Shown here: positions 4,787 to 63,950 of the stretch, one piece after another | How the letters are laid out: every line of letters starts with the position of its first letter | Numbering within the stretch: the first letter of the stretch is position 1 | Source of the DNA: Parcubacteria group bacterium | GTDB taxonomy: Bacteria; Patescibacteriota; Patescibacteriia; Patescibacteriales; GWC2-42-12 | Direction: 5' to 3' | DNA: 64,000 nucleotides | Assembly: GCA_016188785.1 (NCBI GenBank) | Contig: JACPHD010000020.1 | Span: 3,306-67,305 of the forward strand | The notes under the pieces: model-generated | What the model was told of the DNA's origin: nothing | Databases searched by the model: none | The model's input: only the letters and a program-made list of their open reading frames with translations | Made by a program: the position numbers and the translations under genes

Positions 4787-4888
4787 GTAAGCCGCAGAAA
4801 ATACTTATTTTCTCACTGCGGAACCCCCCGCACTAAATGCGGAGTCAAACAGTCATCGTTTCAAAAATAAGCATTTTCTGCGGCTTAC
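4787..4888. ncRNA. 102-nt conserved-core/covarying-stem motif, copy A (candidate structured RNA or structured DNA site)
   Basis: A 23-bp outer stem (4787-4809 / 4866-4888, one A-C mismatch) encloses the core ATTTTCTCACTGCGGAAC...hairpin...TCAAACAGTCATCGTTTCAAAA. A second copy at 60050-60151 has the same core but a completely different, still complementary stem. An extra outer pairing joins 4767-4781 with 4907-4921. Confidence 0.45.
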
Positions 4889-12493: not shown

Positions 12494-12592
12494 TCTAATA
12501 ATACGAATTACGAATTTGTTACGAATTTACAAATACTGTCATAAATGTTTTGTTTAATTTCGTAAATTCGTAAAGGATTTGTAATTCGTATA
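12494..12592. repeat. AT-rich heptamer-tiled palindrome (ACGAATT/TTCGTAA words) after murC
   Basis: ATACGAATTACGAATTTGTTACGAATTTACAAAT ... ATTTCGTAAATTCGTAAAGGATTTGTAATTCGTAT form inverted arms. Confidence 0.75.
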
Positions 12593-12595
12593 TTT

Positions 12596-14386
12596 ATGAA
12601 AGAAAAATTAAACTTAAAATTAGATAAAAGGCCGGTTAAGATGCGGCAATTTTGGCGAAGATTGTGGCGGCTGATCGCGCCAACTCATAAGCAAATTATT
12701 TATTTGTTTATTTTAATCGCGGCTTATGAAATTTTTAAATTTGTCGGGCCGTATTTGCTTAAAAAAATTATTGATTTGATCACTGATTTTAAGCCCGAGC
12801 ATATAAAGAATATATTATTTTTTATATTTTTAATTTTAATTTTTGATTTAGTAGTGGCTATAATTGATTATTTCGCGGATAAAGAAAGTTTTAAGATATT
12901 AGCTGAAGTGGAAAGATACTTATCGGTTAACGCTCAGGAAAAAATGGTCAGGCTGGGCCTGGCTTATCATGAAAGAGAAAATACCGGCAATAAAATATTT
13001 AAAATCAGGCGCGGCATTGATAAAATAATTGAACTGTTGATGAATTCATTTTTTGAAGTCGGTCCGACCGTAATTCAGGTTATCCTTACCGCCATCATCA
13101 TGTTTTTTGTGGACTGGCGTTTTGGCTTGATTTTTTCTTTATTCGCGCCGCTGTTCGCCTGGCTGACCGCCAAACTGAATTTAGAAATTAGCCCTTTGCG
13201 CAAATTCCGGCATGACAGGTATGAAGAAGCGGCCGGTAAAATGGCCCAGACTATTATCAATATCAATACGGTAAAATCGTTCGTCCATGAAGAGCGGGAA
13301 ATAAAAGAATACGGCGCCATCGAGCAGAAAACTAAGCGAGTGGCTTTGTTTGAACATTTTAAAATGCTGAAATTTAATTTTTCCCGGATTATGGTAATAA
13401 CTTTAGGCCGGATTTCAATTATACTGTTCGGCGTTTATTTGGCCTGGCAGGGCAGTATCACTGTCGGCAGTCTGGTTTTTATTATTACCATTTCGGAAAA
13501 AGCTTTAATTTCTTTGTTTAGAATTTCCCGGCTGTATGACCGGATTATGGATTCAAGCGAAGCTATTGATCTGCTGTATAAATTAAATCGCGAAGCGCCG
13601 GACATAGTTAATCCCGAACAGGGCCTTAAAGTTAAAGGGCTTAAAGGCGCGGTTGAATTTAAGCAAGTTGATTTTATCTATCGCCATAGCAAAGTAAAAG
13701 CGCTTGACCGGGTAAGTTTTAAGATCAATGCCGGCGGTTTTACGGCTTTGGTCGGTCCGTCGGGCGGCGGCAAGACCACGGTGGCGCGCCTGATTTACCG
13801 CCACTACGATCCGGCTTCGGGCGCGGTCCTGCTTGATGGCAAAAATTTAACCGAATATGATTTGTACGGCTTTAGAAAATTCATGGCTATTGTGCCGCAA
13901 GAGGTGGAAATTTTTGATTCCAGCGCTAAAGACAATATCGCTTACGCCAGGCCGGATGCGAGTTTTAGGGAAATTACCGCCGCGGCTAAAATCGCCAATG
14001 CCGCGGAATTCATTGAAAAATTAGCTCAAGGCTATAATACTTTAGTGGGCGAGCGGGGCATAAAACTTTCCGGCGGACAAAGACAGCGCCTCGGCATCGC
14101 CCGGGCCGTACTGGCTAATCCGAAAATTTTAATTTTTGATGAAGCCACCTCTAATCTGGACTCTTACAGCGAGAAATTAATTCAAGAAGCTTTAAGTAAA
14201 ATCAGCCGCGGCCGAACGGTTATCGTGATCGCCCATCGGTTGAGTACAATTCAGCAAGCCGATAAAATAATCGTTTTGGAAAACGGCCAGGTGGCGGAGC
14301 AAGGCAGCCATCATGAACTTGCTAAAATAAACGGCGGTTTATATAAAAAATTGTTAAATCTCCAGCGATTGGGGGATATCAAGTAG
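12596..14386 (+). CDS. ABC transporter, fused permease/ATP-binding protein (MsbA-like exporter)
   Basis: 596 aa. Six-TM N-terminal domain, Walker A GPSGGGKTT, LSGGQRQR signature, and Walker B ILIFDEATS. Confidence 0.9.
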   Translation: MKEKLNLKLDKRPVKMRQFWRRLWRLIAPTHKQIIYLFILIAAYEIFKFVGPYLLKKIIDLITDFKPEHIKNILFFIFLILIFDLVVAIIDYFADKESFKILAEVERYLSVNAQEKMVRLGLAYHERENTGNKIFKIRRGIDKIIELLMNSFFEVGPTVIQVILTAIIMFFVDWRFGLIFSLFAPLFAWLTAKLNLEISPLRKFRHDRYEEAAGKMAQTIININTVKSFVHEEREIKEYGAIEQKTKRVALFEHFKMLKFNFSRIMVITLGRISIILFGVYLAWQGSITVGSLVFIITISEKALISLFRISRLYDRIMDSSEAIDLLYKLNREAPDIVNPEQGLKVKGLKGAVEFKQVDFIYRHSKVKALDRVSFKINAGGFTALVGPSGGGKTTVARLIYRHYDPASGAVLLDGKNLTEYDLYGFRKFMAIVPQEVEIFDSSAKDNIAYARPDASFREITAAAKIANAAEFIEKLAQGYNTLVGERGIKLSGGQRQRLGIARAVLANPKILIFDEATSNLDSYSEKLIQEALSKISRGRTVIVIAHRLSTIQQADKIIVLENGQVAEQGSHHELAKINGGLYKKLLNLQRLGDIK

Positions 14387-16937: not shown

Positions 16938-16964
16938 TTAGCACTCTTGACAAGAGAGTGCTAA
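16938..16964. promoter_or_regulatory. CIRCE operator (HrcA binding site)
   Basis: TTAGCACTC-N9-GAGTGCTAA is a perfect match to the CIRCE consensus. Confidence 0.95.
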
Positions 16965-16976: not shown

Positions 16977-16989
16977 GGTTTTATATGGA

Positions 16990-17050
16990 CCCCGTTAGAT
17001 AAAATATAAGTTTAACGGCGGTCATAAATATATGAAGATATCTAACGGGG
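16990..17050. repeat. CCCCGTTAGA...TCTAACGGGG hairpin element, copy 1 (overlaps the hrcA start)
   Basis: Arms CCCCGTTAGAT / ATCTAACGGGG with a 39-nt interior. The annotated hrcA ATG (17032) lies inside it. Confidence 0.8.
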
Positions 17051-17745
17051 TGGATAAACGCAAGGAATTGATACTGAAAACCATTATTAAAGAGCATATT
17101 AAAACCGCTTTGCCGGTCGGCTCAGAAGGCTTAGTTGATAAGTATAATTTAGACATTTCTTCGGCCACGGTCAGAAACGAAATGGCCGAACTGGAACAAT
17201 CCGGCTATATTGCCCAGCCGCACACTTCAGCCGGCCGCATACCTACGGAAAAGGCTTATAATTTCTACTTAGAAAATTTAAGCGAAAAAAATTTAAGCCA
17301 GGCCGAGGTTAAGCAGTTTGAGAAGTTATTGGCTAAAAAAAATGAAATCAGTTTTAAGCAGGCGGCTAAAGATATGGCGAAAATTTCTGACAACGCGGTT
17401 TTTTGGGCCTTTCATAAGCATAATCTTTATTACACCGGCATTTCTAATCTCCTGCATCAGCCGGAGTTTTCCCAAACCGGTTTGATCTATGATATTTCCG
17501 AAGTGATTGACCGGGTTGATGAAATTATCGGGCAGATTTTTAATGATTTGAAGTTCGGGCCGCAAATTATGCTGGGTTCAAAAAATCCGTTTAGCCCGCA
17601 TTGCGGCGCGGTTTTAGCCAAGTATCGGCTTAATGATAATATCGGCTTAGTCGGCATTTTAGGCCCGGTCAGGATGAATTATGAAAAAAATTTGGCCTTG
17701 ATAAAATTTATAAATAATATATTAATGGACCCCGTTAGAAGTTAA
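17032..17745 (+). CDS. hrcA: heat-inducible transcription repressor HrcA (short form)
   Basis: 237 aa. N-terminal wHTH with PVGSEGL...SSATVRNEMAELEQSGYIAQPHTSAGRIPTEKAY. A CIRCE operator lies upstream. Both termini overlap repeat elements. Confidence 0.85.
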   Translation: MKISNGVDKRKELILKTIIKEHIKTALPVGSEGLVDKYNLDISSATVRNEMAELEQSGYIAQPHTSAGRIPTEKAYNFYLENLSEKNLSQAEVKQFEKLLAKKNEISFKQAAKDMAKISDNAVFWAFHKHNLYYTGISNLLHQPEFSQTGLIYDISEVIDRVDEIIGQIFNDLKFGPQIMLGSKNPFSPHCGAVLAKYRLNDNIGLVGILGPVRMNYEKNLALIKFINNILMDPVRS

Positions 17746-17808
17746 GATTTTAACGAGTAATACGATAAGTATTTTAATTATAAACTTGCCTGCTGACTTC
17801 TAACGGGG
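17730..17808. repeat. CCCCGTTAGA...TCTAACGGGG hairpin element, copy 2 (overlaps the hrcA stop)
   Basis: Arms CCCCGTTAGAAG / CTTCTAACGGGG. The preceding ATGGACCCCGTTAGA is identical to the sequence at 16985-16999. Confidence 0.8.
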
Positions 17809-17823
17809 CGGGAAAATAATATT

Positions 17824-18762
17824 ATGACGGAAGAAAAAGAGATTAATAATTTTGGTTGTAAGTACGCTATTAGCGGCGCCAGCGCGTTTATTTTTAATGA
17901 GCAAGGCAAATTATTTTTAACCAGATCGCCGAAATGGAATAATTTATGGGTGGTCCATGGCGGCAAAGTTGAATTTGGCGAGAGTTTAGAGGAGGCTTTA
18001 AAAAGGGAAATTAAAGAAGAAACCAATTTATCTATAAGAGATATCAGATATTTTATAACAGTAGAATTAAATAGAACCGAAGCGAGGCCTGATCTGCATA
18101 TGGTGGTGAATGAATATATCGCGCTAACCAGCGATAGCGAGGTAAAATTAAATAATGAACATAGCGAATTTGATTGGCGTACGCCTGAAGACTGGCTTAA
18201 AGAAAAAGATTTATATCCTAATGTCAGAGAGGCAATTGAATATTATTTAAATGAATTTTTACCTAAACAAGACTGTGAAAATTTATATAAGCGCGCTTTA
18301 GCCGATTATCAAAATTTATTAAAACAAACGGCTAAAGAAAAAATGCAATTCGCGGCTTACGCCAATGAGCAGATGTTAAGAGAAATTTTGCCGGTGTATG
18401 ATCATTTAAAATTAGCCATGGAGCATCATACCGCGTCCGCAACGCCTTGCCACGCCTGCCTTGCAAGCAAGGCATTGCGGGCAGGCTTGCGAGACGGGCG
18501 GGACGGCGAGTCAGCCGACGACTGGCTTAAAGGCGTAGAGTATGTGGTTAAGCAATTTAAAGATGTTTTGGAAAAAAGCGGCATTGAAGAGATAAAAATT
18601 GAAGATAAAAAATTTGACCATAATTTAATGGAGGCGTTAAATAGCGAAGAAACCGATGACCAAAATCTTGACGGCCAAGTGGCCAGACAGATTAAAGCCG
18701 GCTATAAGCTGAACGGGAAAATTATTGAGCCGGTTAAGGTGGTGGTATATAAGTTGAAATAA
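17824..18762 (+). CDS. grpE: NUDIX hydrolase domain fused to nucleotide exchange factor GrpE
   Basis: 312-aa continuous ORF. The N-terminal half carries a NUDIX box, GGKVEFGESLEEALKREIKEETNL. The C-terminal half is GrpE-like (LREILPVYDHLKLA...GYKLNGKIIEPVKVVV). A GC-rich palindrome is inserted in-frame at ~18431-18510. Confidence 0.8.
   Translation: MTEEKEINNFGCKYAISGASAFIFNEQGKLFLTRSPKWNNLWVVHGGKVEFGESLEEALKREIKEETNLSIRDIRYFITVELNRTEARPDLHMVVNEYIALTSDSEVKLNNEHSEFDWRTPEDWLKEKDLYPNVREAIEYYLNEFLPKQDCENLYKRALADYQNLLKQTAKEKMQFAAYANEQMLREILPVYDHLKLAMEHHTASATPCHACLASKALRAGLRDGRDGESADDWLKGVEYVVKQFKDVLEKSGIEEIKIEDKKFDHNLMEALNSEETDDQNLDGQVARQIKAGYKLNGKIIEPVKVVVYKLK
18431..18510. repeat. GC-rich palindromic element in-frame inside grpE
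   Basis: CCGCGTCCGCAACGCCTTGCCACGCCTGCCTTGCAAGCAAGGCATTGCGGGCAGGCTTGCGAGACGGGCGGGACGGCG. GC content is far above that of the flanking gene. It is related to the CGCAAGC/GCTTGCG family. Confidence 0.7.
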
Positions 18763-18876
18763 TTTTCAATTTTCAATGATCAATTTTCAATGAATGACCA
18801 ATTATCAAATTTTCAATTGAAAATTATAATATTGGAAATTGTTTGAAAATTGGAAATTGATAATTGAAAATTGAAC
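18763..18876. repeat. AT-rich heptamer-tiled palindrome (TTTTCAA/TTGAAAA words) after grpE
   Basis: Symmetric about TTTTCAATTGAAAA. The same TTTTCAA tiling occurs in-frame inside miaB. Confidence 0.8.
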
Positions 18877-18952
18877 AAAGATTAAATAATAATTAAATTT
18901 ATTTCCGCGGTTAATTCTGGCAAACGGAATTAACGCGGTGGAGGAAAAAAAT

Positions 18953-19406: not shown

Positions 19407-19690
19407 GTCATTGCGAGGAGCCCGCATCTGCGGGAGATGAAGCAATATTTTTATTTGTCATTCCGGCCTCCGAGCCGGAATCCAGGATTCAGTGGCACAG
19501 ACATCTTATTTTATTATAACCTTAGCAAACCGAACTGCCTACGGACTTATCATGGATTCCCGCTTTCGCGGGAATGACAAAAAGAAAGTAGTCGCTCGCC
19601 ATGACAATTACCTTTTGTCATTCCCGAAGCCGCAGGCTGTCGGGAATCCATGGGTGGGCGGTAGGGATGTTTTTATTGCGAGGACGCGAG
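19407..19690. repeat. cluster of GTCATTGCG/GTCATTCC...GGAATGAC TIR-type repeats
   Basis: Contains GTCATTGCGAGGAGCCCGCATCTGCGGGA. It also holds a full unit, GTCATTCCGGCCTCCGAGCCGGAATCCAGG...ACCGAACTGCCTACGG...GGATTCCCGCTTTCGCGGGAATGAC, followed by GTCATTCCCGAAGCCGCAGGCTGTCGGGAATCCA. Confidence 0.85.
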
Positions 19691-22263: not shown

Positions 22264-22626
22264 ATGAAAGATAATATAATAAAGACAAAAAGCTATAATT
22301 TTGCCATAAGAATTGTTAATTTATATAAATATTTGACTGTAAATAAAAGAGAATATATATTATCAAAACAAATTTTAAGAAGCGGTACTTCAATCGGCGC
22401 TAATGTGGAAGAGGCGATAGGCGGACAATCAGAAAAAGATTTTGTTTCAAAATTATCAATGGCGTATAAAGAAGCTAGGGAAACCAGATATTGGATAAAT
22501 CTATTAGTTGATACTTATATTTTAGAAAAAAATTTGTCTCTTTCTCTTTTAAATGATTGTGAAGAAATATGCAAAATAATTGGCAGAATACAAAAAACTA
22601 CTAAAGATAAAATTCGTAATTCGTAA
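22264..22626 (+). CDS. four-helix-bundle protein (23S rRNA intervening-sequence protein / Avd-like family)
   Basis: 120 aa. SKQILRSGTSIGANVEEA...DFVSKLSMAYKEARETRYWINLL is the family signature. The gene is flanked by inverted heptamer-tiled repeats at 22231-22263 and 22610-22652. Confidence 0.9.
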   Translation: MKDNIIKTKSYNFAIRIVNLYKYLTVNKREYILSKQILRSGTSIGANVEEAIGGQSEKDFVSKLSMAYKEARETRYWINLLVDTYILEKNLSLSLLNDCEEICKIIGRIQKTTKDKIRNS

Positions 22627-37084: not shown

Positions 37085-37335
37085 TTCTAATTTTTTTAAT
37101 TGACCTAATTAAATCCCAATGTCTAATAAAATTCCAAATCACAAACGCCAAATCACAAACAAATTCAAAATAACAAAGCCTAAACGATATATTTATTTTA
37201 GATATTGGTAAATTAGAATTTTGATATTGTTTGTCATTTGTTATTTGTAATTTTAGAAATTTGCTTGGTCATTGGTCATTTAGATTTATGATTTAACTTA
37301 GAAATTAGGTAATTAGATATTTTAGAGATTAATTT
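37085..37335. repeat. AT-rich tiled repeat region (CAAATCACAAAC, TTACAAATAACAAAT-family words)
   Basis: Contains an inverted copy of the 35487/42917 word (GATATTGGTAAATTAGAATTTTGATATTGTTTGTCATTTGTTATTTGTAA) and tandem TCATTGG/AAATCAC words. Confidence 0.7.
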
Positions 37336-37708: not shown

Positions 37709-37841
37709 GTCATTGCGAGCGACCGGAGGGAGAGAAGCAATCTCACGAATTAGGAGTTTAAACTAAAGTGGAAAATTTTATAGCAATTCGTCGTACGTGA
37801 GATTGCTTCGTCCCCCGCAGATGCGGGGTCCTCGCAATGAC
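37709..37841. mobile_element. MITE-like element with ~35-nt TIRs (GTCATTGCGAG..GAAGCAATCTCAC / GTGAGATTGCTTC..CTCGCAATGAC)
   Basis: 133 nt. The TIRs carry nested hairpins (CCCCGCAGATGCGGGG). The interior GGAGTTTAAACTAAAGTGGAAAATTTTATAGCAA is the reverse complement of the interior of the 41381-41505 copy. Confidence 0.75.
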
Positions 37842-41380: not shown

Positions 41381-41505
41381 GTCATTGCGAGCGACCGGAG
41401 GGAGCGAAGCAATCCCACTAACAAAGAGTTGCAATAAAACTTTCCACTTTACTTTAAACTTCTTGTCCGTGAGATTGCTTCGTCGCTATCGCTCCTCGAA
41501 ATAAC
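41381..41505. mobile_element. MITE-like element of the GTCATTGCGAG family (right TIR degenerate)
   Basis: GTCATTGCGAGCGACCGGAGGGAGCGAAGCAATCCCAC ... GTGAGATTGCTTCGTCGCTATCGCTCCTCGAAATAAC. The interior matches the 37709 copy in inverted orientation. Confidence 0.7.
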
Positions 41506-43597: not shown

Positions 43598-43800
43598 AAA
43601 AAAATGACAAATGACTAATTTCTAATGACAAATCAATGTCAAAATCCCCGGCCCGCCTCGCGTTAAATATATTACTGATAATTACTCATTAGCATCTACT
43701 GAACAACTTAAATTGATAGACAAGTTAACGGCGAGCGGGGCAGGCCAAATGTCAAAAAATATTTTTAAATTTGTCATTTGTCATTGGAAATTTGTCATTC
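43598..43800. repeat. long composite palindrome between ybaB and recR
   Basis: AAATGACAAATGACTAATTTCTAATGACAAAT...CCCCGGCCCGCCTCGCGTTAA pairs with TTAACGGCGAGCGGGGCAGGCC...ATTTGTCATTTGTCATTGGAAATTTGTCATT. The interior is ~60 nt. Confidence 0.7.
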
Positions 43801-44075: not shown

Positions 44076-44224
44076 GTCATTGCGAGCGACCCCGCATCTG
44101 CGGGGGAGCGAAGCAATCTCACGGATGTCTTGTAAGTATGATGGTGGTAATATTTTAGTGAAAAGTCGTTGTTTGTGAGATTGCTTCGTCGCTTCCGCCT
44201 GCTGGCGGAGCTCCTCGCAATGAC
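44076..44224. mobile_element. MITE-like element of the GTCATTGCGAG family
   Basis: 149 nt. GTCATTGCGAGCGACCCCGCATCTGCGGGGGAGCGAAGCAATCTCAC ... GTGAGATTGCTTCGTCGCTTCCGCCTGCTGGCGGAGCTCCTCGCAATGAC. Confidence 0.8.
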
Positions 44225-45626: not shown

Positions 45627-45713
45627 AGTTTCATACTACAATGGCTGGCCGGTTTAAGCAAGAGCGATTTTTCTTGCCATTTCTAATGTTATATGTTATT
45701 TTAATAATGTTAA

Positions 45714-45763
45714 CCCCGTTAAATCCCAATTATTATTGGGGCGTAAAGCATATTTTAACGGGG
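45714..45763. repeat. CCCCGTTAAA...TTTAACGGGG hairpin element, copy 3
   Basis: Arms TTAACCCCGTTAAA / TTTAACGGGGTTAA with a 30-nt interior. Confidence 0.8.
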
Positions 45764-45788
45764 TTAATCAATCGCTAAATGCGGTTTC

Positions 45789-49886: not shown

Positions 49887-49890
49887 TTTT

Positions 49891-49970
49891 CTGGATTTCT
49901 GTCTGCGCAGGAATAATCGTCATTCCTGCGAAAGCAGGAATCCAGAAAGAATTTTTCTGGATTTCATGGG
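49891..49970. repeat. CTGGATTYC/GGAATGAC-family repeat cluster
   Basis: CTGGATTTCTGTCTGCGCAGGAATAATCGTCATTCCTGCGAAAGCAGGAATCCAGAAAG...CTGGATTTCATGG. Confidence 0.8.
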
Positions 49971-60049: not shown

Positions 60050-60151
60050 GCAGTTGGCTGGAATCAGTAATTTTCTCGTTGCGGAACTCGCCCCGCCAAG
60101 GCGGTGCTCAAACAGTCCTCACTTCAAAAATTACTAATTCCAGCCAACTGC
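60050..60151. ncRNA. 102-nt conserved-core/covarying-stem motif, copy B
   Basis: Same length and core as 4787-4888 (ATTTTCTCGTTGCGGAAC...TCAAACAGTCCTCACTTCAAAA). The 23-bp outer stem, GCAGTTGGCTGGAATCAGTAATT/AATTACTAATTCCAGCCAACTGC, is unrelated in sequence. Confidence 0.45.
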
Positions 60152-63335: not shown

Positions 63336-63360
63336 GAATTATATGAGAACTTATAAATTC

Positions 63361-63434
63361 GTCATGCCTGCGAAAGCAGGCATCCAGAAATTACACGAAG
63401 ATTTTTTCTGGATTCCTGCCTGCGCAGGAATGAC
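63361..63434. mobile_element. minimal (74-nt) member of the GTCAT..CCAG / CTGGATTCC..GGAATGAC TIR family
   Basis: GTCATGCCTGCGAAAGCAGGCATCCAG-20 nt-CTGGATTCCTGCCTGCGCAGGAATGAC. Confidence 0.75.
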
Positions 63435-63494
63435 GATACTTGTCGGATAATCTGTTTATTTGTAAATACTTCTTTATTCTGCTAAATTTATTTC

Positions 63495-63950
63495 ATGACA
63501 TTATTTATCAATACAACCTATAATGACCAGGTTCTGATTATGTTAAAACATGGCGATGGTTCAGTCTTGGCCAGTAAAAAATTCAAAGCGCGTTTTCGGC
63601 AGAGTGAAAAGCTTTTGCCGGCCATAGATAAACTGCTTAAAGACAATCAATTAAAATTAAGTGATTTGAGCGGCCTGGAAGTGGAAAACCGCGGCGGTTC
63701 GTTCACCCCGTTAGAAAAACCTTTTCTAACGGGGTTCACAGCTTTGCGTATCGGCGTGGTTACGGCCAACGCCCTGGCCTACGCGCTGGCAATTCCGCTT
63801 ATGGCGGCCGGAAGCAAAAAGTTAAAAATTAAAAGCCAAAAATTTTCCGTAGTTGAGCCTTTATATGACCGAGAGCCGGAGATAACAGTTAAAAAGATTT
63901 CTATTTCTGTCATTGCGGCCTCCGAGCCGCAATCCAGGAGTAAACCGTAA
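63495..63950 (+). CDS. tsaB: tRNA t6A37 biosynthesis protein TsaB (YeaZ-like), short, with a hairpin insertion in its conserved motif and a repeat-derived C-terminal tail
   Basis: 151 aa. GGSFT[PLEKPFLTGFT]ALRIGVVTANALAYAL compares with the canonical G(P)GSFTGxRIG(x)A motif. The last ~14 residues (VIAASEPQSRSKP) are read from a GTCATTGCGG repeat. Confidence 0.7.
   Translation: MTLFINTTYNDQVLIMLKHGDGSVLASKKFKARFRQSEKLLPAIDKLLKDNQLKLSDLSGLEVENRGGSFTPLEKPFLTGFTALRIGVVTANALAYALAIPLMAAGSKKLKIKSQKFSVVEPLYDREPEITVKKISISVIAASEPQSRSKP
63706..63734. repeat. CCCCGTTAGA...TCTAACGGGG hairpin element, copy 4 (inside tsaB)
   Basis: CCCCGTTAGAAAAACCTTTTCTAACGGGG, flanked by the direct repeat GTTCAC (63701-63706 and 63734-63739). 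Confidence 0.85.
63909..63938. repeat. left-end unit of the GTCATTGCGG...CGCAATCCAGG repeat at the tsaB 3' end
   Basis: GTCATTGCGGCCTCCGAGCCGCAATCCAGG is identical to 61395-61424. Confidence 0.85.

Follow-up and report, generated by a model that had tools for sequence, protein, structure and literature searches.

The window analyzed here is a 64,000-nucleotide stretch of a metagenome-assembled genome of a Parcubacteria group bacterium (contig JACPHD010000020.1). Its subject is a putative tsaB gene on the plus strand at 63495-63950, assigned from its open reading frame (ORF), Pfam match and fold, which encodes a single-domain TsaB/YeaZ homolog of 151 amino acids recorded in the database as a hypothetical protein. 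Inside the gene, at 63706-63734, lies a 29-nt hairpin element with arms CCCCGTTAGAAAA and TTTTCTAACGGGG and the loop ACC, which reads (T)PLEKPFLTG in the frame of the gene and is flanked by left (63702-63705) and right (63735-63738) copies of a 4-nt target-site duplication, TTCA; no strand is assigned to this or any other copy of the element. The site can be written as GGC GGT TCG TTC A-CCCCGTTAGAAAA-ACC-TTTTCTAACGGGG-TTC ACA GCT TTG CGT ATC GGC, and the stretch across the insert is GGSFTPLEKPFLTGFTALR. A reading made from the sequence alone had reported a perfect hairpin at this place and 33 additional nucleotides bounded by a 6-nt duplication. The hairpin was confirmed with perfect 13+3+13 pairing, and the 33 extra nucleotides also stood, being made up of the 29-nt element and a duplication that is 4 nt and not 6 nt long. 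GTTCAC does occur at 63701-63706 and again at 63734-63739, but this apparent 6-nt repeat arises because insertion prefers the target G-TNNA-C (the hyphens marking the edges of the duplicated nucleotides) and the element begins with C and ends with G.

Deletion of the 33 nt gives back GGSFTALRIG, and the 11 added residues are residues 71 to 81 of the protein. The expectation that such a deletion would restore a conserved motif was supported by the alignment of orthologs, since GGSFT(S/A)LRIG without an insert was found in about 117 of the 120 best TsaB homologs, and the only carriers among these 120 were P0001 (the window protein in the homolog set), P0007 and P0012. Likewise, the score against PF00814 (TsaD/TsaB; gathering cutoff, 24.8 bits) rose from 33.6 bits in two stretches to 46.1 bits in one stretch after the 11 residues were taken out, in agreement with the proposal that they are extra residues added with the frame kept. 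The homologs are about 120 to 130 residues each, and the two-domain layout of TsaB (about 210 to 230 residues) was not seen in the window clade. The top Foldseek matches were the YeaZ/TsaB structures 5br9, 4y0w, 1okj and 4wq4 (E value of about 1E-6), with a structural alignment of only about 106 columns that covered the N-terminal domain of the 205- to 230-residue YeaZ/TsaB chains. From the homolog lengths and the modeled fold, TsaB of this clade is thus a single-domain protein equivalent to the N-terminal half of YeaZ/TsaB. AlphaFold placed the inserted residues in a coil between a strand (residues 60 to 64) and a helix (residues 81 to 98), which is a loop modeled at low confidence (pLDDT of about 51). 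The helix is one that we take to be among the two at the TsaB-TsaD interface in the published YgjD-YeaZ structures. Two other homologs, P0044 and P0116, have unrelated inserts (LASKRGTS and PPKVGVAS) in the same loop, 1 to 2 residues upstream, suggesting that this loop accepts insertions generally.

The site was found both filled and empty in relatives. A 41-nt element, CCCCGTTAGAGAA followed by 15 nt and TTCTCTAACGGGG, was present in the DNA encoding P0007 (locus L001 and, independently, L002) and P0012 (L003), at the identical tsaB codon and with TTCA on either side. The insert stands at one site in both L001, an NCBI assembly, and L002, which Logan assembled from a separate run. In P0007, T rather than G precedes the left TTCA, indicating that the duplication is 4 nt and that the 6-nt repeat is peculiar to the window. 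The nearest relative of the window TsaB, P0002 (76% identical; L004), has the empty site GGTTCCTTTACT-GCTTTG. P0007 and P0012 are sister sequences, and the window TsaB belongs to a separate clade of 11 in which it is the sole carrier; apart from the sister relationship of P0007 and P0012, the nearest relatives of each carrier lack the insert. The presence of carriers in two clades implies at least two gains or else many precise losses. Outside the insert, the DNA of the P0007 and P0012 genes shows 76% identity, a figure that drops to 59% at third codon positions; within it, by contrast, none of the 26 arm nucleotides differs, and the four differences present are confined to the central 15 nt. 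It follows that the arms are constrained or else that the two insertions are younger than the genes.

A second hairpin family, of the form GTCAT-stem-loop-stem-ATCCAG(A/G)A, was observed in the window at 63903-63940, 63359-63436, 49888-49948 and 19551-19652, and also in L150 (40-75) and L151 (225-260). The copy at the 3' end of tsaB is the source of a 17-residue C-terminal extension, ISISVIAASEPQSRSKP, which the orthologs do not have. The window tsaB therefore holds inserts from two palindromic families.

Anatomy, targets and hosts of the hairpin family

A one-genome-per-species scan for CCCCGTTAGA-N(5-35)-TCTAACGGGG gave at least 119 loci, against roughly 17 chance matches by a rough estimate. 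When the termini were relaxed to 8 nt and redundancy was removed, 147 copies were obtained among the matches listed, and these are the basis of the family counts given here. All begin with CCCCGTTA and end with TAACGGGG. The arms are exactly 13 nt long, with positions 1 to 10 being CCCCGTTAGA and positions 11 to 13 variable (15 different triplets) but complementary: Watson-Crick pairing was 90%, 81% and 71% at positions 11, 12 and 13, compared with 42%, 55% and 29% expected from base composition. From position 14 on, pairing fell to about 22%, and this was the same for every loop-length class. A compensated change was also seen at position 9 (L012:3636).

The elements ranged from 26 to 114 nt, with a mode of 29 nt (34 of the 147 copies) and most under 50 nt. 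Loops go down to 3 nt in length and are otherwise of almost any sequence; in a check for loops captured from nearby DNA, 11-mer matches were at the noise level. A second length peak was found at 53 nt. Each of the twelve copies in it has a loop of exactly 27 nt, but the loop sequences are essentially unrelated to one another (mean pairwise identity of 0.35), and this pairing of constant length with free sequence points to a constraint on length or to a ruler-like step. These 53-nt copies were located in L007, L012, L027, L047, L063, L067, L073-L076 and L091, from Omnitrophota and Planctomycetota.

Identical 4-nt flanks were present in 82 of the 147 copies, compared with 1 in 256 expected by chance. 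The target logo, built from reconstructed empty sites, showed G (52%) on the left, then T (80%) or C (20%), any two nucleotides, and A (80%) or G (20%), followed by C (52%) on the right; the preferred target, G-TNNA-C, is therefore palindromic. The commonest duplications were TTTA and TAAA, and the tsaB target in the window, G-TTCA-C, is an exact fit to the family consensus.

Among the matches listed, duplication-flanked copies were found in Patescibacteria (18 copies), Omnitrophota (23), Planctomycetota (14), Desulfobacterota (7) and Nitrospirota (5), with single cases elsewhere and one copy in the complete genome of "Ca. Velamenicoccus archaeovorus." The element is thus present in at least five phyla and is not lineage-specific. 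Matches labeled Bacteroidales, Bacillota and Rhizobium lacked duplications and may be chance hairpins, and the two archaeal-labeled contigs with matches both carry bacterial-looking genes. Viral contigs gave 23 matches, of which many were longer, terminator-like hairpins without duplications and few looked like true copies. No copies were found in the plasmid collection, and no Rfam family scored above its gathering threshold for the element.

Within the window, the paired-terminus pattern had an expectation of 0.00 in shuffled windows. The 8-mer CCCCGTTA occurred eight times (2.1 expected), and all eight occurrences fell into four convergent pairs. As RNA the tsaB hairpin folds with -22.7 kcal/mol (z of -6.1), and as DNA with -14.5 kcal/mol (z of -6.3). 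The three further copies that had been proposed in the window were all present. A 61-nt copy at 16990-17050 lies within ATG-GA at the hrcA start codon and is flanked by the duplication TGGA at 16986-16989 and 17051-17054; a 79-nt copy at 17730-17808 lies in ATGGA of the last hrcA codons, with TGGA on its left and a right duplicate that has decayed to CGGG (17809-17812); and a 50-nt intergenic copy at 45714-45763, upstream of dnaB, has arms beginning CCCCGTTAAA and ending TTTAACGGGG and the duplication TTAA at 45710-45713 and 45764-45767. The four copies in this 64-kb window represent four different arm variants.

Other repeats were noted in the window. Two 102-nt units, at 4787-4888 and 60050-60151, share a homologous core (...TTTTCTCnyTGCGGAAC...TCAAACAGTC...TTCAAAAAT) and have outer arms of 16 to 25 nt that differ between the units, each pair being self-complementary, which amounts to a covarying outer helix; these units had no Rfam match and could be a structured RNA or another family of miniature elements. 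A third palindromic repeat family, of about 76 to 80 nt and with arms CGAAGCAATCTCACG..., is intergenic at 37734-37809, 41405-41482 and 44109-44188. AT-rich, low-complexity inverted repeats (AATTTTCAA, ATTTGTCATT and ACGAATT units) fill the intergenic stretches 18761-18883, 43603-43799, 37136-37253 and 12496-12596.

Copies within genes

Copies were counted as inside a gene when, after computational removal of the element, an ORF remained open over 60 codons or more to both sides of the site; 131 copies were usable. Of these, 26 lay within ORFs (compared with 59% of random positions in the same loci), a three-fold depletion. The length was 2 modulo 3 in 23 of the 26 in-gene copies but in 55 of the 105 outside genes (Fisher P = 6.7E-4), and because a 4-nt duplication plus such an element adds whole codons, the predicted bias of coding copies toward multiples of 3 was upheld. 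As found, 21 of the 26 read through. Two of the three frames through the arms are free of stops, PLE...LTG and PVR...SNG. With 29 nt plus 4 nt making 33 nt and two frames open, many insertions would add at least 11 residues without breaking the gene.

The target G-TTYA-C lies within the codons for G-F-T (F-T being TTY ACN), and this explains the recurrent insertion in the TsaB motif GSFT and the prepilin motif GFT, the target being contained in F-T codons, especially after G. An example from Phycisphaerae reads RRGFT-PLEIRRCFLTG-FTLIELLVV. The end of the element together with the duplication rebuilds (T)G-F-T before the ALRIG helix of TsaB, and G-F-T next to the downstream sequence in prepilins. 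Judging from these sequences, an element in the prepilin leader would duplicate the G-F-T cleavage motif and leave the mature protein unchanged. Phycisphaerae prepilin-type (GFTLIELLVVIAII) proteins with the element in the leader peptide were observed in L044 (1815-2576 and 3360-4235) and L075 (1468-2379).

The two hrcA copies alter the ends of the gene. HrcA orthologs begin with MDKRK in 60 of 120 cases and end in ..LMEK or ..LMDK. At 16990-17050, the last G of the element followed by TG makes a GTG that would restore MDKRK, and an internal ATG at 17032 gives MKISNGV-DKRK; a similar N-terminal extension was seen in the other carriers P0137, P0151 and P0196, which begin M.(I/T)SNGV. The copy at 17730-17808 provides a new C terminus, ..MDPVRS, together with the stop codon. 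In DNA, the hrcA site was filled in the window, L148, L149 and L153 and empty in L147 (HrcA 89% identical), L150/L151 (92%) and L152. HrcA proteins with 99% identity thus differ in occupancy of the site (carrier P0151 and empty P0148; filled L153 and empty L152). L152 and L153 show further differences upstream of the gene, so that this pair may reflect recombination rather than simple excision.

Several features around hrcA and its neighbors were also observed. In L152 (430-475) and L153 (110-150), upstream of hrcA, the spacer of the controlling inverted repeat of chaperone expression (CIRCE; TTAGCACTC-N9-GAGTGCTAA) is split by a different hairpin, CCCCG(C/T)A...CGGGG, with the flanks CTTGA and CAAG, and a second, intact CIRCE follows. 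The window CIRCE (16938-16964) is intact, and the 13-nt-arm element lies between it and hrcA. GrpE at 17824-18762 of the window has a fused N-terminal NUDIX domain, and the same fusion was found in L147, L149 and L153. The dnaK-dnaJ spacer holds differing small accessory genes, encoding a 23S rRNA intervening-sequence protein in the window (22264-22626), a DUF559 endonuclease in L149 (15200-15559), and an HD protein plus DUF3800 in L147 (15172-16397), and seems to be a hot spot of small selfish genes.

Origin and mobility of the element

We consider it probable that the tsaB insert is a copy of a nonautonomous, miniature hairpin transposon resembling the MITEs (transposable elements of miniature size that bear inverted repeats). 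The earlier proposal of a mobile palindrome was strengthened by three results that support mobility, namely, the 4-bp duplications across the family, the palindromic target consensus, and orthologous sites that are filled in some genomes and empty in others. Two 13-bp inverted arms around a short or arbitrary loop define the family, and 4 bp of the palindromic target are duplicated on insertion. In the mechanism we propose, a transposase encoded elsewhere would move the element, recognizing the 10-bp termini within the paired 13-bp arm and making 4-bp staggered cuts. Selection would then remove frame-breaking insertions in genes, and the tsaB insert would be translated.

The element shares with MITEs its terminal inverted repeats, target duplication and presence or absence at orthologous sites. 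It differs in size, as prokaryotic MITEs are described at 50 to 800 bp and surveys use that range (PMC11602168). The bacterial MITEs Correia/NEMIS, ERIC and QMITE are likewise noncoding and multicopy, with terminal inverted repeats, a duplication of fixed length and occasional in-frame gene fusions; the hairpin element is unlike them in its mode of 29 bp, its unrelated loops and its identical termini across phyla. Among MITE-like elements, this family is a new variant, unusual in its small size and wide distribution. A search of the literature by sequence and keyword returned no published description of it, and a paper on complete Omnitrophota genomes names IS110, IS5 and IS1634 and does not mention palindromic repeats. 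One sequence match, in a P. gingivalis paper, was rejected because it was a synthetic oligonucleotide.

The window insert had been compared to the Rickettsia palindromic elements (RPEs). The likeness holds for the outcome, as both are palindromic selfish DNAs found in frame in conserved housekeeping genes, with an extra peptide tolerated in a loop. It does not hold for sequence, size, target duplication or hosts. RPEs, which have been described as MITE-like (PMC10969869, PMC3733652), are about 100 to 150 bp, restricted to Rickettsia and tagged with CGTC at one end (PMC3733652, PMC10969869). The present elements show no sequence similarity to them and have lengths of 26 to 114 nt, symmetric CCCCGTTAGA termini, no CGTC tag, a clear 4-bp duplication and hosts in at least five phyla.

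Several observations weigh against a MITE-like transposon. Because the 10-nt termini were fixed in the search pattern, their conservation partly reflects how the copies were found, and identical flanks are missing from 65 of the 147 copies. When the 64 copies that are at least 40 nt long were compared, their loops fell into 50 clusters, 43 of them singletons; the arms alone are common to the family, which is unusual for MITEs or deletion derivatives of one insertion sequence. The covariation at positions 11 to 13 is more readily explained by recognition of a structure than by sequence-specific binding of a terminal repeat. To our knowledge, 29 bp is also below any size shown for classical DDE transposition. 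Among the mismatched flanks, the pair TTCA...CAAG recurs (L018 2082, L034 787, L115 4701 and L144 3962), and TGCA...CAAG was seen at L060 5766; the genes at these sites are unrelated and the copies otherwise typical. The TTCA...CAAG flanks could represent a 2-nt CA duplication at TTCAAG or a subfamily with slightly different ends.

The search for a mobilizing enzyme also counts against the preferred reading, as neither about 1.1 Mb of loci nor the window yielded a copy that has these termini and carries a transposase. Terminus pairs 150 to 4,000 nt apart with matching duplications, sought in all retrieved loci, were only combinations of separate small copies. The ORFs beside solitary termini encoded no transposase (FtsK, RNase Y, ThrRS, DapB, a chemoreceptor, a radical SAM protein, a glycosyltransferase and prepilins), clustering of ORFs of at least 220 residues across the loci gave no recurrent mobile-element gene, and Pfam scans of 40 window ORFs gave housekeeping genes only. 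The 5'-CC...GG-3' ends and the 4-bp duplication point, in insertion-sequence family tables, to the IS1380/piggyBac group, with which the element shares these ends and a 4- to 5-bp duplication with a T...A bias; piggyBac duplicates TTAA and has the 13-bp terminal repeat CCCTAGAAAGATA. In IS1247, IS1678 and ISEcp1, the ends start with CC (CCT or CCC in the IS1380 members compared), and the IS1678 duplication is 5 bp. Nothing was common to these ends and the hairpin termini beyond the leading CC and, in ISEcp1, a short TAGA. A phmmer search with ISEcp1 (the query being a 100% match to plasmid records) against 1,754 ORFs from the loci gave no match, and no IS1380-like ORF was found near any copy. 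Furthermore, the CCCCGTTAGA termini were absent from 80 IS1247-like metagenome loci, a sample of close IS1247 relatives only. An IS1380 origin is therefore possible but unsupported.

The foremost alternative is an element consisting of a hairpin only, in which the 13-bp stem would be recognized as a structure, either a single-stranded DNA hairpin or a cruciform, by an unlinked or domesticated enzyme according to the logic of REP sequences (repetitive palindromes in extragenic DNA) and REPINs with RAYT (TnpA-REP), followed by 4-bp staggered integration. The covarying positions with a sharp edge at 13 bp in every loop length, the compensatory change at position 9, the loops that behave as unrelated cargo, the twelve exact 27-nt loops, the lack of an autonomous copy in the loci examined and the four arm variants within one window all favor it. 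REP/REPINs are likewise 20- to 40-nt palindromes with a covarying stem and a short conserved sequence, and in both systems the element does not carry the mobilizing enzyme. Nevertheless, REPs have an asymmetric tag and no target duplication and are mostly extragenic and lineage-specific, whereas the present element has symmetric termini and in-frame copies in genes. The hairpin-acting HUH/Y1 enzymes (IS200/IS605 and RAYT) make no target duplications, and the 4-bp duplication argues against a REP/RAYT mechanism. REP superfamilies are defined by a GTAG or CGTC tag (PMC3733652), and the element has neither. Moreover, no candidate enzyme emerged, and the negative result for a parent element comes from a small sample. 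We regard the hairpin-only explanation as unlikely.

It is more doubtful still that the hairpins no longer move and now serve the host chiefly as functional sites maintained by selection (such as a palindrome that binds a protein, an RNA stem-loop or a terminator), with the tsaB copy being old and fixed. The identity of the 26 arm nucleotides in the otherwise diverged P0007 and P0012 genes would fit such a role, as would the 5' copy in hrcA, which has a homologous interior and an in-frame ATG conserved down to 71% protein identity and has been taken over as the start region, and the commonest flank, TTTA, which puts a U-rich tract after the stem. However, the contexts are unrelated (in genes, start codons, stop regions and intergenic DNA), with no consistent position relative to genes; occupancy differs between HrcA proteins that are 99% identical; the arms of old hrcA copies are decaying (TCTAATGGGG); and a host function would leave the 4-bp duplications unexplained.

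Removal of the insert from tsaB RNA in the manner of an intervening sequence, joining GGTTCGTTCAC to AGCTTTGCG and leaving the protein unaffected, appears very improbable. With TTCAC duplicated at its two borders, the insert could formally be excised without a seam, and the strong hairpin could be a processing signal, yet the bias to frame-preserving lengths and stop-free frames would be needless if the insert were spliced out, no Rfam family reached its gathering threshold, and we know of no bacterial mechanism for splicing a 33-nt hairpin. Finally, an artefact of the assembly or library is hardly credible, even for a window drawn from a metagenome-assembled genome, given the same insert at the same site in L001 and L002 and an element carried by more than 100 genomes from many studies, one of them complete, and an ancestral TsaB loop lost in most lineages is equally so, because the terminal repeats and target duplication mark an insertion that 117 of 120 homologs, including the nearest relatives of the carriers, do not have. 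The sharing of the loop by orthologs in unrelated lineages would have spoken against a mobile palindrome; the orthologs with an insert at this codon were P0007 and P0012, where the DNA is the same element with its TTCA duplication.

Consequences for host genes and genomes

The genes that the element reshapes belong to genome-reduced Patescibacteria as well as to Omnitrophota, Planctomycetota, Nitrospirota and Desulfobacterota. Its effects on proteins include loops added to conserved motifs, longer prepilin leaders, and replaced start and stop codons, as in hrcA. That distant phyla share these 10-bp termini implies that either the element or its enzyme has spread horizontally. Surveys for MITEs, with their lower bound of 50 bp, would overlook a family of such small elements. 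For annotation, the family allows gene starts to be corrected, "odd" inserts to be explained, and recurrent false "hypothetical" peptides (PLE..LTG and SNGV) to be flagged. Finding the enzyme could reveal a transposase or nuclease that acts on a 29-bp substrate.

A bolder view, which we put forward tentatively and hold to be possible rather than probable, is that these hairpins are not degenerate insertion sequences and instead constitute a new, structure-dependent transposition system, in which an unlinked enzyme would act on the folded stem and make 4-bp staggered cuts at G-TNNA-C, moving the hairpins across at least five phyla. The sole requirement of such a system might then be a pair of 13-bp arms, with 10 conserved and 3 covarying bases, around any loop (among them the exact 27-nt loops of unrelated sequence), a suggestion about which we are similarly cautious. 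At 29 bp, it would be the smallest mobile DNA known to us. If this proved true, the system would offer a general route to new loops in conserved motifs such as the GSFT of TsaB and the GFT of prepilins.

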